Shown: positions 19,077 to 25,724, numbered from the stretch's first letter. The stretch is 64,000 bases of DNA from Patescibacteria group bacterium (GCA_049296775.1 JBAQTB010000003.1:12766-76765); one strand, 5' to 3'. Program-made: numbers and translations. The notes: generated by a model from the letters alone, not told the origin.

Positions 19077-19111
19077 AAGTGACAACTGGGGGCTATACCC
19101 AGTTGTCACTT
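19077..19111. promoter_or_regulatory. Perfect 14-bp inverted repeat, candidate operator upstream of secD
   Basis: aagtgacaactggg-ggctata-cccagttgtcactt. No U-tract follows, so it is probably not a terminator. Confidence 0.35.
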
Positions 19112-19148
19112 GCGTAAATGGCGGCATTTTCTTAGAATGCTCCCGACT

Positions 19149-21188
19149 ATGAACAAATACGCCGCTCGAGAAGGTTTTTCTTATAAGCAGGCTAGATTGG
19201 TAGCTCTGGGGCTGTTATTGGCCTTAGCGATAGGCGTGGGCATCGCTTATCCCAAACCTTGGAATCAGGCCATGGGTGCCATGGAAGATAAGTTAGGCTT
19301 CCATTTGCCGTATTTGCCGGAATCAGAGTTTAGATTGGGTCTCGACCTACGGGGCGGGGCGCATTTGGTATATGAGGCTGACATGTCGGCCATTCCAGAC
19401 GTAGATAAGACTGAGGCCTTGTCTGGTGTGCGTGACGTGGTGGAGCGCCGGGTGAATGCGTTTGGTGTGTCTGAGCCGGTGGTGCAGACCACGGTGAGCG
19501 GTGGAAGCTATCGCGTGATCGTGGATTTGCCAGGCGTGACTGACGTTGCTGACGCTGTGCGTGAGATTGGCGAGACGCCAGTTTTGACTTTCCGTTTACC
19601 GGACGAAGAGATTGAAGTTGAACCGACTGCTGAACAGGAGCAGCAGATCGTGGAGGCACAGGTCATTGAGCGTGAGGCGGCCGTAGCGGTGTTAGACCGC
19701 GCTTTGGACGGTGAGGATTTTGGTGCCTTGGCAGCGGAGCTATCTATTGACGCAAGTACTAGAGACGCTGAGGGTTATGTGGGTTTCATTAGTTCTGAGG
19801 ATGAAGAGTACGGTGGTTTGGCTGAGCAGATTGCGGATGACCGCTTGCGCGTGGGCGTGATTAACGGCTTGTATGAAGGCACGTCACGTATTCACATTGT
19901 TAAGTACTTATCTAGAAAGGTAGAAACTGAGCCGAGAATTTCACATATTTTGGTGTGTTATGACGGCGCTTTGAGCTGTACGCAATCACGCACTAAGGAA
20001 GAAGCCTTGACGATGATTGAGGGACTTAAGGATCAGGCCACACGCTCCAACTTTGCTGAGTTAGCTACAGAATCTTCAGATGACACAGGGAGCGGTCAGG
20101 CTGGTGGAGATTTGGGCTTCTTGAAGCCAGGTGACACCGTAGCTCCTTTTGATGAAGCCGCTTTTGCTTTATCGAATAACCGAATCTCTGAGGTGATCGA
20201 AACAGATTTTGGTTACCATATCCTATTCCGCCCAGAGTCACGGTCTGTGACTTATTACGAAATTGCCCAGGTAGAAATGCCATGGACAACCTTGTCTGAT
20301 ATTTTCGTGATTGATCCTTGGATTAACACTGAACTGTCAGGTAAGCATGTACAGCACGCGAGTGTCGGTTTTGATCAGAACAGTGGTGCGCCGTACGTGA
20401 TTTTGGACTTCAACACTGAGGGTGCTGATTTATTTACCAAAATGACGGAAGAAAACGTGGGTAAAGTGATCGGGATTTTCTTGGATGGTGAAGCCATTAC
20501 TACGCCAGTCGTGCAGCAGGTCATTTACGGCGGGCAAGCGACGATTACCGGAAACTTCTCTCTGACTGAGGCTAAGCTCTTGGCGCAGCGTTTGAATGCT
20601 GGCGCCTTGCCAGTGCCAATTGAAGTTGTTAGCCAACAGACGATCGGTCCAGCTTTAGGTAAAGTGTCACTAGATAAGAGTATTCAGGCTGGTTTGGTAG
20701 GTTTTGCTCTGATCGCGTTGTACATTTTAGTGTATTACCGCTTGGCAGGAGCTTTGGCAGTGGTGGCGTTAGCTTTTTACGCCGTGACTAACCTGGCTTT
20801 ATACAAGTTGCTGGGTGTGACGATTACATTATCCGGAATTGCCGGTTTTGTGTTGTCGCTCGGTATTGCGGTTGATGCCAACGTGCTGATTTTCGAGCGC
20901 TTAAAAGAAGAATTGAGAAGTGGCAGGGATTTGCCAACAGCGTGTGACGAAGCCTTCAGACGCGCTTGGCCATCTATTCGTGACGGTAACTTGACGACCT
21001 TGATTGCGACCATGGTGTTGTACTGGATCGGTGAAGGTTTTATTCGTGGATTTGCTTTGACCTTGACGATCGGTGTGTTGATGTCGATGGTGAGCGCAAT
21101 GGTGGTCACTAAGGTGCTCTTGAAATTGGTCGTACGTTATAAGGCGGTACGCAAACCGGCATTTTTCTTAGGTCTTGAACGTAAGTAG
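19149..21188 (+). CDS. secD: SecD with two parvulin-type (PpiC) PPIase modules inserted in the periplasmic domain
   Basis: TM1 then SecD base LGLDLRGGAHLVYEA. Insert module 1 GEDFGALAAELSIDASTRDAEGYVGFI...TSRIHIVK (degenerate parvulin). Module 2 ISHILVCYDG...GGDLGFLKPGDTVAPFDEAAFAL...DFGYHILF (canonical PpiC). Then SecD P1/C-terminal TMs VVALAFYAVTN..., GIAVDANVLIFER. Confidence 0.8.
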   Translation: MNKYAAREGFSYKQARLVALGLLLALAIGVGIAYPKPWNQAMGAMEDKLGFHLPYLPESEFRLGLDLRGGAHLVYEADMSAIPDVDKTEALSGVRDVVERRVNAFGVSEPVVQTTVSGGSYRVIVDLPGVTDVADAVREIGETPVLTFRLPDEEIEVEPTAEQEQQIVEAQVIEREAAVAVLDRALDGEDFGALAAELSIDASTRDAEGYVGFISSEDEEYGGLAEQIADDRLRVGVINGLYEGTSRIHIVKYLSRKVETEPRISHILVCYDGALSCTQSRTKEEALTMIEGLKDQATRSNFAELATESSDDTGSGQAGGDLGFLKPGDTVAPFDEAAFALSNNRISEVIETDFGYHILFRPESRSVTYYEIAQVEMPWTTLSDIFVIDPWINTELSGKHVQHASVGFDQNSGAPYVILDFNTEGADLFTKMTEENVGKVIGIFLDGEAITTPVVQQVIYGGQATITGNFSLTEAKLLAQRLNAGALPVPIEVVSQQTIGPALGKVSLDKSIQAGLVGFALIALYILVYYRLAGALAVVALAFYAVTNLALYKLLGVTITLSGIAGFVLSLGIAVDANVLIFERLKEELRSGRDLPTACDEAFRRAWPSIRDGNLTTLIATMVLYWIGEGFIRGFALTLTIGVLMSMVSAMVVTKVLLKLVVRYKAVRKPAFFLGLERK

Positions 21189-22089: not shown

Positions 22090-22133
22090 GTCGTTTAGGT
22101 GGGGTAGGAGTCATGCTATAATGCGCCTATCCT

Positions 22134-23687
22134 ATGCTAGGAATCGTTCTCAACCTTCCACCTTACGTAGAAAACTACCTTGCGACTACCCCAATTGAGT
22201 CCATGGCGGCTCAGGCGATTTTGTTGTTTGGTTGGTTTCCCATCTTTGGAGTGCTCGTGTGGGGTATGGCCCACGTGTGGTTGGATTTTAAACAAGATAA
22301 ATATAGCGCTGCCCAGAAATACGTCATGCTAGACGTGCGTGTTCCGCAAACGGCGATTCAAACGCCTAAGGGCATGGATATCTTTTTCGCTAATTTGTCT
22401 GGGTCAAGGAGCAGTATTACATGGCGTGAGAAGTGGTTACTCGGCAAGGAACAGCCAGTATTTTCTTTTGAAATTGCAAGTAATGAGGGGAGGATTCAAT
22501 TTATTATTCGCTGCACGGATAAGTATCGTGATTTAGTTGAGGCAGATATTTACGCGCAGTATCCAGAGGCGCAAATTACGGAAATTGCGGATTACACAGG
22601 GGTCATTCCTAAGGCTTATCCTGATGAAGAATGGGAGGCTTTTGGAGCTGAGTTTGTCTTGAAGAACGCCAATCATTTCCCGATCCGGACGTTCATGGAT
22701 TTTGAACACCAGGGGGAGAAAGAGGGGAGATTTAAGGATCCCTTGCTACCAATTTTGGAATTGATGGGCAAGATGCGCCCAGGCGAGCACTTCTGGATCC
22801 AAATGTTAATTCAGGCTCCGGACAGTCAAGATTGGACTAAAGATGGAGCTAAGTTTGCTTCCACGATCATGGGTAAAGAGGAGAAGAAAGTTAAGAGCAT
22901 GACACAAGAGCTAGGCGAGATGGTTGGATCTTTACCGATGGATGTGTTAGGACAAATGACGGGTGCCTCTTCCCCTAATGCTAAGCCAGAAAAGAAGAGC
23001 GATGATTTTAAGATGTTTAAGTTGACGCCGGCTGAGAAGTTGCAGATTGATTCGGTGACGGAGAAGATCTCTAAGTTGGGCTGGAAAACTAAGATCAGAA
23101 TCGTGTACGCGGCTAAGAAATCAACCTTCCGTAAGGGTATGATGGCTTCTGGTATGAAGGGCATCATGGCTTCATACACTAATAGCATCGTGAATTCCTT
23201 TAGCATGCACGGGCCGTCAATTCCAAAAGACGATTATTTTTGGATGGCTTGGCAGTATCCAGGTAAACAGACTAAACTCGCTAAACGCTTTGCTGGCCGC
23301 TCATTTGGACCTGGGTCTACGGCCTTCATTCTCAATACTGAAGAATTGGCGACTTTTTGGCACTTCCCGGCTGCAGATGCACGGACTCCGGTGCTAGCAG
23401 CCATGGGTGCACGTCGAGCAGAGGCTCCAGCTGATTTGTACTTTGCGGATGATTTAGACGGTGATGGTATTCCGGATTGGAAGCAGAAGCATGGCAAGAG
23501 TTTGCCGGGAGTTGGTTTGGCAGCTGAGGCTGAGTCTCCAGTGCGTTTGCCGACTCCGTTATCACCTACAGGTGCGGCGGGTGCTATGCCGCAACCGGGC
23601 AAACCGGCACCTTTGCCACCTGGACTTGATCTGAGTGATGAGCCGCTTGACCCTAGGAATATCGCCCCAGGAAATTTACCTGTTTAA
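22134..23687 (+). CDS. Hypothetical membrane-anchored protein, upstream partner of the T4CP-like ATPase
   Basis: 517 aa; N-terminal TM helices (AILLFGWFPIFGVLVWGMAHVWL), large soluble domain, Pro/Gly/Ala-rich C-terminus. The stop is 21 nt before the next start. Confidence 0.5.
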   Translation: MLGIVLNLPPYVENYLATTPIESMAAQAILLFGWFPIFGVLVWGMAHVWLDFKQDKYSAAQKYVMLDVRVPQTAIQTPKGMDIFFANLSGSRSSITWREKWLLGKEQPVFSFEIASNEGRIQFIIRCTDKYRDLVEADIYAQYPEAQITEIADYTGVIPKAYPDEEWEAFGAEFVLKNANHFPIRTFMDFEHQGEKEGRFKDPLLPILELMGKMRPGEHFWIQMLIQAPDSQDWTKDGAKFASTIMGKEEKKVKSMTQELGEMVGSLPMDVLGQMTGASSPNAKPEKKSDDFKMFKLTPAEKLQIDSVTEKISKLGWKTKIRIVYAAKKSTFRKGMMASGMKGIMASYTNSIVNSFSMHGPSIPKDDYFWMAWQYPGKQTKLAKRFAGRSFGPGSTAFILNTEELATFWHFPAADARTPVLAAMGARRAEAPADLYFADDLDGDGIPDWKQKHGKSLPGVGLAAEAESPVRLPTPLSPTGAAGAMPQPGKPAPLPPGLDLSDEPLDPRNIAPGNLPV

Positions 23688-23708
23688 CGTTGTTTGCACT
23701 CTGCTTGT

Positions 23709-25724
23709 ATGGCGAACCGTTATCCTCACGATCACGAGCAAGATGTTGTCTATTTTGCTAAGACTAACTTCCGCAATCAATTGCGCAAGTTTGGCATTAA
23801 GACAGATGACCGACGCCGTCATGTGTACGTGGTGGGTAAGACCGGTATGGGTAAGACCACTTTGCTTGAGAACATGATCTTGTCAGATATTTACGCCGGG
23901 CACGGTTGTTGCTATGTAGATCCGCACGGGGATACGGTACAGAAAATTATCGATTACATTCCGTCATGGCGCATTAATGACGTGGTGTATTTCGATCCTG
24001 CTGACGTGGCGCATCCAATCGGATTTAACATTTTGGAGTCTGTGGATCCGACCATGAAACACTTGGTGGCGTCGGCTCTCATGTCCGTGTTTAAGAAGAT
24101 TTGGGAGAATGTATGGTCAGCGCGCATGGAGTACATTCTCAACAACACGATTTTGGCGCTTCTGGATACCCCGGGCACCACGCTCTTGGGTGTGAATCGC
24201 ATGTTGTCAGATAAGGAATATCGTTTAGAGATCGTCAAGAATATTCAAGATCCGATTGTTAAGCAGTTTTGGGTGACAGAGTTTGCGGCGTATGACGCTA
24301 AGTTTGCCTCTGAAGCCGTGGCTCCGATCCAGAACAAGATCGGTCAGTTTTTGTCTTCCTCGATTATTCGCAATATTGTGGCTCAGGCTAAGTCGTCCAT
24401 CAATATTCGTGAGATGATGGATGATCAGAAGATTTTTATCATCAACTTATCTAAAGGTAAGATTGGGGAAGATGCCATGCGCTTGCTCGGCGGCATGTTG
24501 ATCACCAAGATGCAGGTAGCTGCCATGGAGCGCGTGAATGTTCCGGAAGAGACTCGTGAAGATTTTTATTTGTACGTTGATGAATTCCAGAACTTTGCGG
24601 TGGAATCATTCGCTGGCATTTTGTCTGAGGCGCGTAAGTACCGGCTGAATTTGATCATGGCGCACCAGTACATTACTCAATTATCTGAAGAGGTGAGAGA
24701 CGCGGTGTTTGGTAACGTGGGTACCATGATTACGTTTAGAGTTGGCTCGCCGGATGCGGTTTTCATGGAGAATGAGTTCATGCCCAGGTTTACGCCAGAG
24801 GATATTATCAATTTGCCTAAGGCGGGTATTTATTTGAAGTTGATGATTGATGGCGTAGCGAGTCAGCCGTTTTCTGCGGTGACTTTGCCGCCAATTGCGC
24901 AACGCACTGAGAGTATGACGCGCGTAGTTGAGCAGTCGCGTGAACGTTACGGTGGTAACCGCAGCATCATTGAAGAACGTGTGGCAGTTTGGAGCGGTTT
25001 TGGCGCTGATGCCGATGTCGAGAAGATGATTGCGGGTGTAACTCAGGCTAAGAAAGATGCCAAGAAGGCTAGATTTAGTCACGATTATACGTGTACGCGT
25101 TGCGGCAAGGTTTTCTCATTGCCAGTTGAATTAGACCGGAGCCGGCCGATTTATTGTGAAGATTGTAAGCCGATTATTGACGCTGAACGACAAAAGTCCA
25201 AAGACAAAGCTGGTCAACGGACTAAAATCTCAGATGGGCAAGTGATCACTAAACCGATCATTGGATCAGTGTCGCTCGATACTTTAGTGCCGCCTAAGCG
25301 TCTGGAGCCAGCGGTGGTTGCGCCAGAGAAGCACGAGCATATCTTAACGCCGACGGTGCCTGTGCCGCCAGCTGTTGCGGTTAAACCAGTCGCGGTTGCG
25401 GCGGTCGCAGAAACGCCTCGAGCCGCTCCGGCTCCCGTGACGCCTTCGGTAAGTAGCCGACCGTCCATGCCAGCACCACGTGCGGTAACAGTCGCGCCAG
25501 CTCGGCCTGTGAGCACGCAGACAGGAACAGCTGACCCGGATAAGAAGCGCAAGCGGAATCGCAAACGCAAGCCTAGAGTTATAGCAGATGTAGCTGTCAC
25601 GCCACCATTAGCGCCGTTGTCTGTGCCTAGGCTAGTGCCACCAACGGCGATTAAAACCACGGCGGCCATTGAGCCAGCGCTGAAGCCTGTCATGCCCGGC
25701 GAAAGAATTAGCTTTGATGATTAG
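23709..25724 (+). CDS. TraD/TraG/VirD4-family (type IV coupling protein-like) P-loop ATPase, soluble, with C-terminal zinc ribbon and Pro/Ala-rich basic tail
   Basis: Walker A VVGKTGMGKTTL, Walker B YLYVDEFQNFA, T4CP-like core (LIMAHQYITQL). CTRCGKVF-x16-YCEDCKP zinc ribbon. A 190-aa P/A/V-rich tail carries KKRKRNRKRKPR. No N-terminal TM helices. The ORF-track start 23694 is TTG; the ATG is at 23709. Confidence 0.7.
   Translation: MANRYPHDHEQDVVYFAKTNFRNQLRKFGIKTDDRRRHVYVVGKTGMGKTTLLENMILSDIYAGHGCCYVDPHGDTVQKIIDYIPSWRINDVVYFDPADVAHPIGFNILESVDPTMKHLVASALMSVFKKIWENVWSARMEYILNNTILALLDTPGTTLLGVNRMLSDKEYRLEIVKNIQDPIVKQFWVTEFAAYDAKFASEAVAPIQNKIGQFLSSSIIRNIVAQAKSSINIREMMDDQKIFIINLSKGKIGEDAMRLLGGMLITKMQVAAMERVNVPEETREDFYLYVDEFQNFAVESFAGILSEARKYRLNLIMAHQYITQLSEEVRDAVFGNVGTMITFRVGSPDAVFMENEFMPRFTPEDIINLPKAGIYLKLMIDGVASQPFSAVTLPPIAQRTESMTRVVEQSRERYGGNRSIIEERVAVWSGFGADADVEKMIAGVTQAKKDAKKARFSHDYTCTRCGKVFSLPVELDRSRPIYCEDCKPIIDAERQKSKDKAGQRTKISDGQVITKPIIGSVSLDTLVPPKRLEPAVVAPEKHEHILTPTVPVPPAVAVKPVAVAAVAETPRAAPAPVTPSVSSRPSMPAPRAVTVAPARPVSTQTGTADPDKKRKRNRKRKPRVIADVAVTPPLAPLSVPRLVPPTAIKTTAAIEPALKPVMPGERISFDD

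Follow-up and report, generated by a model that had tools for sequence, protein, structure and literature searches.

What does a gene for an ATPase of the type IV coupling protein (T4CP) family do between secDF and uppP in the chromosome of a Patescibacteria bacterium, and does the membrane protein encoded directly upstream belong to it? Both genes lie in a 64-kb stretch of DNA from a metagenome-assembled genome (MAG) of the Patescibacteria, or candidate phyla radiation (CPR). This whole stretch is called the window here; coordinates are those of the window, and the features of the pair are on the + strand. The first open reading frame (ORF; 22134..23687, 517 aa) encodes a membrane subunit which the precomputed Pfam assignment of the exact protein places in PF26449 (DUF8128). 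The second (23709..25724, 671 aa) encodes a soluble ATPase subunit, assigned to the T4CP family by Pfam and NCBIfam matches and by hhalign comparison with TrwB. Both proteins are 100% identical to NCBI entries labelled 'Patescibacteria group bacterium', which lie on a 383-kb contig. An original prediction, made from the sequence, had marked 22134-25724 as a two-gene module downstream of secDF. Both ORFs were recovered in our analysis and, with homologues of both proteins numbering in the hundreds to thousands, the pair is judged to be far beyond chance. Our answer to the question of membership is that the two genes very probably encode a split DUF8128-type T4CP.

Family assignment and the split and fused forms

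The ATPase exceeded the Pfam cut-offs of TrwB_AAD_bind (PF10412; 45.5 bits against 20.5), T4SS-DNA_transf (PF02534; 33.8 bits against 20.1) and TraG-D_C (PF12696; 24 bits against 22). HerA/DUF87 (PF01935; 22.5 bits, cut-off 23.2) and FtsK_SpoIIIE (PF01580; 17.4 bits, cut-off 24, P-loop only) both stayed below theirs. The T4CP assignment of the original prediction is thereby upheld, the best profile matches falling to T4CP families and not to FtsK or HerA. Comparison of a 40-orthologue profile with TrwB of R388 by hhalign gave a probability of 93.7% and an E of 1.9e-7 over 267 columns. TrwB and DotL were the best PDB sequence matches, and a Foldseek search with a low-confidence AlphaFold2 (AF2) model returned TrwB as its top three matches. 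An all-alpha insertion lies between Walker A and Walker B: the PF10412 match covers profile positions 10-310, the hhalign alignment covers TrwB 118-393 with the helical insertion included, and the secondary structure of the low-confidence AF2 model is all-helical at aa 114-225. Assignment as a VirB4-like ATPase was rejected, since against TrwK/VirB4 (hhalign probability 2%) and TrsE of pGO1 only the P-loop aligns. The ATPase thus has in common with TrwB (R388), VirD4 and TraD a P-loop nucleotide-binding domain (NBD) with a helical insertion, Walker A and B, and a TraG-D_C region thereafter. Canonical T4CPs, however, carry two N-terminal transmembrane (TM) helices on the same chain and no DUF8128, and they are encoded with a relaxase or a type IV secretion system (T4SS) on mobile elements, whereas here the anchor is a separate one-TM protein with a 355-aa domain, the context is that of chromosomal housekeeping genes, and the ATPase ends in a zinc-ribbon tail.

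All listed homologues of the upstream protein belong to DUF8128, as it does itself. An exhaustive profile search found 2,542 DUF8128 clusters at 50% identity (E<=1e-3), and the best 150 of these are all stand-alone proteins of ~265-690 aa. Locus counts in Patescibacteria refer to species-representative genomes and to loci with enough downstream DNA. In every such locus but one, DUF8128 is followed directly by the ATPase; among the 76 loci with both genes, 74 are split and 2 are fused, and the spacers are typically 0-20 nt. Even where secDF and uppP no longer adjoin it, in Moraniibacteria and Saccharibacteria, the pair is kept together. The sole DUF8128 locus with no ATPase match after it (L078 2057-5230) comes from a Parcubacteria MAG, JAIFWR010000022.1, labelled 'viral-cat_58_25'. 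Its downstream DNA holds overlapping Arg/Pro-rich ORFs that suggest a different composition, and either an assembly chimera or a replaced partner is possible.

Both Saccharibacteria loci are fused. One of them (L080) combines a TM helix, DUF8128 and the ATPase in an ORF of 797 aa, which matches the DUF8128 profile with a probability of 99.7% and an E of 1e-26 by hhalign. The split DUF8128 proteins end in a motif, P-x-N-L-P-[VILMT], that stands at the C-terminus or within 3 residues of it in nearly all 74 split loci. In the fused ORF, P-x-N-L-P-V lies exactly at the domain junction, and the ATPase motif FGIK.DDRRRH follows ~20 residues further on.

Fusions were found outside the Patescibacteria as well. 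A T4CP of an Embleya plasmid (NZ_CP108778, 812 aa) has 30% identity to the ATPase core (tblastn E 2e-55), and its N-terminal 400 aa align to DUF8128. A database search with this N-terminal region yielded 98 proteins, from Streptomyces, Frankia, Kitasatospora, Nonomuraea, Acidimicrobiia and Pseudonocardiaceae; most of them have PF26449, and many of these also have PF10412, PF01935 or PF12696 on the same chain. The cluster of Nonomuraea rubra reads T4SS_pilin, TrbL_3 (VirB6), PrgI (VirB3), VirB4, DUF8128-T4CP, a small ORF, Replic_Relax and NlpC/P60. In Nonomuraea, in Embleya and in an Acidimicrobiia MAG, the fused gene stands between VirB4 and the Replic_Relax gene; PrgI and NlpC/P60 are present in the Nonomuraea and Embleya clusters, and T4SS_pilin and TrbL in that of Nonomuraea. 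Based on these contexts, the DUF8128-type protein is the coupling protein of a class of monoderm conjugative T4SS. The forms from T4SS or integrative conjugative elements of Actinomycetota (P0292 of Nonomuraea rubra, 682 aa; Embleya, 812 aa) have the same order of TM helix, DUF8128 and TrwB-type ATPase, and their N-terminal domain has both a precomputed DUF8128 assignment and a motif in common with the split proteins, ELA-x-L-x-H-x-P..DA..P.L...GAR. They differ in being a single polypeptide, in being encoded in a conjugative-type cluster (pilin, VirB6, VirB3, VirB4, Replic_Relax, NlpC/P60) and in being much less conserved; a zinc ribbon or basic tail was not seen in them.

In phages, the two window proteins match different halves of one 824-position PHROG profile, phrog_5156. 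The DUF8128 profile aligned by hhalign with the N-termini of phage G gp156 (probability 98.3%) and SPO1 gp27.4 (95.2%), and gp156 was also the top BFVD match of the DUF8128 model in Foldseek (E 1.7e-17). These proteins of Bacillus phages, members of phrog_5156, fuse a DUF8128-like N-domain to a T4CP-type ATPase with ~23-30% identity. They differ in being phage genes and in having no N-terminal TM helix, whereas the actinobacterial and Saccharibacteria fused forms have one. In SPO1 (L093 1747-5284), gp27.4 (906 aa) comes after a partition gene and before gp27.3, annotated 'replication initiation by nicking', and the 7-kb stretch examined holds no flanking T4SS genes. In phage G (L092 196-4338), gp156 follows gp155, annotated 'VirB-like'.

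The adjacency in Patescibacteria and the fusions in Saccharibacteria, Actinomycetota and phages form a Rosetta-stone relationship, by which the pair is identified as a true split T4CP, one of a subclass with DUF8128. A split T4CP had been offered as an idea in the original prediction, and the natural fusions now give it substance. In this T4CP subclass, DUF8128 is the domain that natively forms the N-terminal part.

Two further ATPase homologues were met in plasmid records. The closest non-Patescibacteria relative in the plasmid collection is a stand-alone 395-aa ATPase (38% identity, E 4e-91) on the Sulfitobacter mediterraneus plasmid NZ_CP081110.1 (L083 5986-7173), which sits amid transposases and a recombinase; no membrane protein or DUF8128-type partner is annotated beside it. 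The other (L091) is a fragmented homologue, at ~33-42% identity in three main pieces, in the 1.08-Mb Priestia megaterium 'plasmid' pFDU301A (NZ_CP045273.1); the 12-kb stretch around it has 33% GC and gave no DUF8128 match, the record carries one annotated feature, and it may not be a real Priestia plasmid.

Domains and motifs of the two subunits

The DUF8128 protein begins with a single predicted N-terminal TM helix, AAQAILLFGWFPIFGVLVWGMAHVWL (22206..22283, aa 25-50). Kyte-Doolittle windows exceed 1.6 only at aa 23-48, and AF2 predicts a helix over aa 21-60. Lysines K53 and K56 after the helix suggest, by the positive-inside rule, an N-out/C-in topology. There follows a predicted cytoplasmic alpha/beta domain, the DUF8128 domain proper (22314..23378, ~aa 61-415, ~355 aa), delimited by the AF2 model and by conservation; the AF2 pLDDT is 85-92 over most of it, and it ends in the conserved motif ELAT-x-HFP-x2-DA-x-TP-x-L-x3-GARR. 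The remainder (23379..23684) is a disordered, Pro-rich tether of ~100 aa with pLDDT <50, which ends in P-G-N-L-P-V (nt 23670-23684). The original prediction had this partner supply TM helices. Its anchoring role stands, while the number does not, as there is one strong hydrophobic segment and not two. Nor is anchoring the whole of what the partner offers: it brings the conserved ~355-aa DUF8128 domain, the Pro-rich tail and P-x-N-L-P-V besides.

The ATPase, for its part, has no hydrophobic segment along the whole 671-aa chain and thus no TM anchor of its own. Its TrwB/VirD4-type NBD with the helical insertion, or all-alpha domain (23754..24998), was delimited by Pfam, hhalign and motif alignment. 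The N-terminal motif of the NBD is FAKTNFRN..R.FGIK.DDRRRH; Walker A is GKTGMGKT (aa 43-50, nt 23835-23858), Walker B is FYLYVDEFQNF (aa 286-296, nt 24564-24596), and the landmark AHQY lies at nt 24660-24671. The NBD motifs, Walker A and B among them, are invariant across 40 homologues. After the NBD comes a zinc ribbon, CTRC-x17-CEDC (CTRCGKVFSLPVELDRSRPIYCEDC; 25092..25166, aa 462-486). Its profile matches are sub-threshold (zf_Tbcl_2, 21.7 bits; TIGR04272, 20.3 bits), all four Cys are invariant in the homologue alignment, and the ribbon is present in 66 of 69 complete orthologues. The last part is a disordered P/A/V-rich tail of 185 aa (25167..25721, pLDDT <50; P 30, A 25, V 23, K+R 29). 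It contains the basic patch KKRKRNRKRKPR (25542-25577, aa 612-623) and closes with the conserved motif PGERISFDD (25695-25721), recognised from the sequence and its orthologues. The K/R run is found in most close orthologues, and conservation of the C-terminal PGE..F motif is wide. The C-terminal module, that is the zinc ribbon, the K/R run and the PGE..F motif, is missing from the fused Saccharibacteria form. Of the earlier description of this protein, the intact Walker A and B, the lack of N-terminal TM helices and the basic P/A/V-rich tail (~190 aa, here 185 aa, carrying the basic patch) all agree with what we found; the zinc ribbon is there too, with a spacing of x17 in place of the x16 given.

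The two genes are separated by a 21-nt spacer from the DUF8128 stop codon to the ATPase ATG. Both ORFs are in one reading frame, and within 23685-23711 a single TAA and six sense codons stand between them. The ATPase most likely starts at ATG 23709, TTG 23694 being unlikely, since the NCBI model has 671 aa and homologues start at the same point. Is the common frame a trace of a readthrough product? The frame is shared in 31 of 71 loci where 24 (one third) are expected, and a single stop lies between the genes in 24 loci. This is not convincing, and we make no claim of programmed stop-codon readthrough restoring the fusion. Upstream of the pair, an extended -10-like promoter element, TGCTATAAT (22114..22122), was read from the sequence 11 nt 5' of the DUF8128 ATG. 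The consensus promoter scan did not call it, as there is no -35 match, and there is no Shine-Dalgarno sequence between the element and the DUF8128 start codon. This weakly suggests that a putative promoter gives the pair a near-leaderless transcript separate from secDF.

The model of the DUF8128 protein provided a further lead. In a Foldseek search against PDB, its top 14 matches were all R388 TrwK/VirB4 chains (E 1e-4 to 6e-3, probability 0.87-1.0, ~435-450 aligned columns), and the match after them was an ESX-3 chain at E 0.014. As there was no further P-loop ATPase among the matches, the similarity presumably lies in the N-terminal domain specific to VirB4, not in the RecA-like one. TM-scores against TrwK/VirB4 were low (~0.3), profile searches against PDB sequences returned nothing, and hhalign comparisons with TrwK, TrsD, Nonomuraea VirB4 and phage G gp155 were all negative. 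We treat a shared VirB4-like fold as a lead only. The arrangement is like that of VirB3 and VirB4, or TrsD and TrsE of pGO1, in which a membrane or N-terminal part and an ATPase part are adjoining genes. Unlike VirB4 (TrwK), the pair has a TrwB-like ATPase half, and DUF8128 profiles have no sequence similarity to TrwK, TrsD or actinobacterial VirB4. If DUF8128 were a homologue of the VirB4 N-terminal domain, the subclass might be an evolutionary intermediate between VirB4 and VirD4, a reading related to the T4SS-independent one weighed below, and a shared fold would bear on how VirB4 and VirD4 diverged. No earlier description of the VirB4-like fold, of the DUF8128 partner or of the fission/fusion relationship was found in the literature, and searches on DUF8128 and PF26449 found no paper.

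Neighbourhood and conservation

The pair is embedded in housekeeping genes. Upstream in the window are the genes for DnaB, RecR, YbaB, SHMT, MurB, MurC, SecA, MurI, SecD and SecF, and downstream those for UppP, an rRNA-type methyltransferase, RluA, MnmA, LigA, GatC/A, Lgt and DsbA. The GC content is flat over the window. The synteny is conserved in relatives, and no mobile-element genes flank the pair. A mobile element was thus rejected on context, composition and synteny, in keeping with the core secDF/uppP neighbourhood described in the original prediction.

How strongly is the module conserved? We compared median identities to the window protein, counting locus by locus. At a median of 74.8%, the ATPase core is the more conserved protein in 52/52 loci when set against SecD (59.6%), in 57/57 against SecF (56.5%), in 71/71 against DUF8128 (50.1%) and in 45/45 against UppP (46.9%). 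In Patescibacteria the two genes are linked as in an operon and pass on by vertical descent, and purifying selection on the module is very strong.

Some features of the neighbourhood deserve mention in their own right. SecD (19110-21188; 692 aa, or 679 aa in the database gene call) carries internal PpiC-type rotamase domains, PF13616 and PF00639, by precomputed Pfam assignment. Such a SecD-PPIase fusion is unusual, and longer SecD alignments, at least, in related loci suggest that it is conserved. In the Moraniibacteria loci L072 and L074, as in Southlakia (SEML1_0293-0298), the module comes after a sigma-factor gene and near topA and a putative dprA, which is annotated as DprA in Southlakia. 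MnmA is directly 3' of the module in Moraniibacteria and four genes downstream of it in the window. The shared neighbourhood of sigma factor, topA, dprA and MnmA may be a trace of an older gene order.

Function of the pair

How widespread are coupling proteins and their channels in this phylum? In the survey by Quinonero-Coronel et al. (2025, PMC12102498), VirB4 of the monoderm-type T4SS is reported in 2,417 of 3,035 Patescibacteria genomes (80%), and 5,713 homologues of VirD4-type T4CPs in 2,918 of the 3,035 (96%); these authors consider exaptation not ruled out, and the passages of the article that were consulted make no mention of a DUF8128 partner. The existence of T4CP homologues unlinked to virB4 in Patescibacteria is therefore already published. 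What appears to be new is the two-subunit architecture, together with the place of DUF8128 as native N-domain in a T4CP subclass and the extent to which the module is conserved.

Genetic information comes from Southlakia epibionticum ML1 (Wang et al. 2023, PMC10633639), where the T4SS cluster is essential, as are its pilins (Table S1), and has no recognisable coupling protein or relaxase. Its SEML1_0293 is a protein of 921 aa with TrwB_AAD_bind at aa 402-719, flagged as a Patescibacteria-enriched core family (PMC10633639 Table S1/S2). The gene order TopA, one gene, sigma factor, T4CP matches that of the two Moraniibacteria loci, which makes SEML1_0293 the positional orthologue of our ATPase. 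With a ~400-aa region before TrwB_AAD_bind, as in the fused Saccharibacteria ORF, it is probably of the fused form; it therefore differs from the pair in being apparently fused and not split, and the orthology is one of synteny and domain positions, not of sequence. By transposon sequencing (Tn-seq), SEML1_0293 scores as non-essential at all three time points, the normalised reads being 5817, 2940 and 1372 (PMC10633639). In model systems VirD4 is needed for substrate transfer only and not for pilus assembly (PMC13463995), so that an essential, pilus-producing T4SS together with a dispensable T4CP is what would be expected in Southlakia. A second T4CP-like protein, SEML1_0142 (1019 aa, with a TraM-recognition domain and an FtsK-like P-loop), is essential by Tn-seq (PMC10633639); with roughly two T4CP homologues to a Patescibacteria genome, this may be the second one. 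SEML1_0096 is the canonical FtsK and essential (PMC10633639). A role of our ATPase as a substitute for FtsK was rejected, since Saccharibacteria have an essential canonical FtsK while the T4CP is non-essential.

As the explanation of the whole we lean, by a little, towards one T4CP split in two polypeptides which most likely feeds substrate to a T4SS encoded elsewhere. That the split T4CP works with the T4SS, taken as a claim by itself, we regard as nearly balanced and slightly on the doubtful side. In the mechanism that we infer, the DUF8128 subunit would be a one-helix membrane anchor that exposes its ~355-aa domain and a flexible Pro-rich tether, tipped with P-x-N-L-P-V, to the cytoplasm. 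The TrwB/VirD4-type ATPase, presumably a hexameric ring, would be tethered at the membrane by the DUF8128 domain, by the NLPV-tipped tether or by both, an arrangement that would mirror the single-chain DUF8128-T4CP of Actinomycetota, Saccharibacteria and Bacillus phages. If TraD and DotL with their C-terminal extensions are a guide, the zinc ribbon, the basic tail and the PGERISFD module would likely bind a substrate or an adaptor, and the substrate would probably be nucleic acid or nucleoprotein. The complex could then dock on a VirB4/PrgI/VirB6 platform and feed its substrate to the monoderm-type T4SS (VirB4, PrgI, VirB6 and pilins) encoded elsewhere in most Patescibacteria.

Several observations weigh against a split T4CP serving that T4SS. 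No VirB4, PrgI, TrbL, Replic_Relax, second T4CP or second DUF8128 homologue was found among the ORFs of the 64-kb window, in agreement with the earlier statement that it holds no VirB4, relaxase or other T4SS genes. No relaxase is known for the T4SS of Patescibacteria. Conjugative T4CPs are not typically as extremely conserved as this ATPase. Only gene fusion and synteny speak for a physical contact between the two subunits. The AF2 model of the ATPase is poor (mean pLDDT 55), probably as a result of an alignment shallow in diversity, and served only as a Foldseek query; the VirB4-like fold of the predicted DUF8128 model comes with low TM-scores and with profile comparisons that do not support it. 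SPO1 gp27.4, with no T4SS genes beside it in the 7 kb, implies that the architecture may work without a channel. In the survey, only 148 of the 5,713 T4CP homologues are near virB4, so that T4CP genes almost never adjoin it, and the presence of T4CP in 96% of genomes as against VirB4 in 80% hints at some T4SS-independent use (PMC12102498).

Could the pair, then, be a housekeeping translocase that needs no T4SS at all? Recruitment of the ATPase to take up or export DNA or protein had been put forward as a possibility in the original prediction. It would be an exapted, stand-alone, membrane-tethered motor, possibly moving DNA or RNA across or at the membrane, for instance inwards, together with ComEC and type IV pili, or outwards, and the zinc ribbon and basic tail would grip the nucleic acid directly in place of a relaxase. 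We consider this unlikely, though it is the most serious of the alternatives. The narrower claim, that the split DUF8128-T4CP is no T4SS accessory but a phylum-wide nucleic-acid translocase acting alone or with ComEC and type IV pili, is somewhat less likely again; if it were true, the zinc ribbon and basic tail would take hold of DNA or RNA, either to bring it in from the host cell or to pass it to that cell. The surplus of T4CP over VirB4 and their rare linkage speak for such a motor, as do the housekeeping context with an ATPase more conserved than SecDF, the lack of a known relaxase, the shared architecture in phages with SPO1 gp27.4 adjoining a nicking protein, and the retention of the zinc ribbon in nearly all complete orthologues and of the K/R run in most close ones. 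This support is of an indirect kind, however, and incompleteness of the MAGs, which were admitted at a completeness threshold of >50%, could account for part of the gap between 96% and 80%. The closest cellular relatives, moreover, are bona fide T4SS coupling proteins. No protein named ComFA is listed in the Southlakia tables, a point in favour of such a motor. The Tn-seq phenotypes differ there, a point against it: reads of the comEC mutant are stable, whereas those of SEML1_0293 mutants drop ~four-fold. The pair lies near dprA and topA in Moraniibacteria and Southlakia, but in Moraniibacteria dprA-topA is on the strand opposite to the sigma factor and the pair, and adjacency of dprA and topA is common in bacteria in any case.

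A second alternative keeps the T4SS and changes the cargo: the substrates that the T4CP would bring to the Patescibacteria T4SS, and that would end up in the host bacterium, would be proteins and not DNA. In Dot/Icm and VirB/D4 systems, protein effectors are recruited through the C-terminal extensions of the T4CPs. Wang et al. (2023, PMC10633639) suggested that the Southlakia T4SS may export proteins, given that its cluster has no recognisable coupling protein or relaxase. The closest homologues of our ATPase are, however, linked to Replic_Relax or nicking proteins and so to DNA processing, and its basic patch and zinc ribbon suggest nucleic-acid binding. In Southlakia the T4SS is essential and the gene is not, and any effector it handled would be dispensable in co-culture. 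Coupling of protein effectors is thus improbable in our judgement.

The remnant of an integrated conjugative element, or a defence ATPase of the MADS mad8 or HerA type, in place of a core cellular module, is very unlikely: the PADLOC mad8 model matches the ATPase core (65 bits, E 1.6e-18), HerA matches are weak and T4CP genes are usually mobile, but the flanking genes include no further mad gene and no integrase, relaxase or T4SS gene, GC is uniform across the window, synteny is kept in dozens of species-level genomes with motifs intact at 60-95% identity, and the Southlakia gene is flagged as a Patescibacteria-enriched core family (PMC10633639 Table S1). A MADS defence system in particular was rejected as the identity of the locus, since the flanking genes are all housekeeping by Pfam and none of them suggests the eight-gene mad operon. 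The mad8 match shows in passing that some defence systems use a related T4CP/HerA-like ATPase.

To return to the split T4CP that feeds a T4SS encoded elsewhere, what would it mean for these organisms? Patescibacteria are host-dependent, and epibiotic growth requires the T4SS in the single species in which this was tested, although the T4SS cluster has no recognised coupling protein or relaxase. The near-universal, unlinked T4CP homologue now becomes half of a two-gene module, and DUF8128 gains its first functional context. The pair is a concrete candidate for the missing coupling protein, and it would offer a testable reason for the T4CP being non-essential when the T4SS and its pilins are essential. 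Conservation above that of SecDF points to an important role in nature, one that laboratory co-culture does not reveal.

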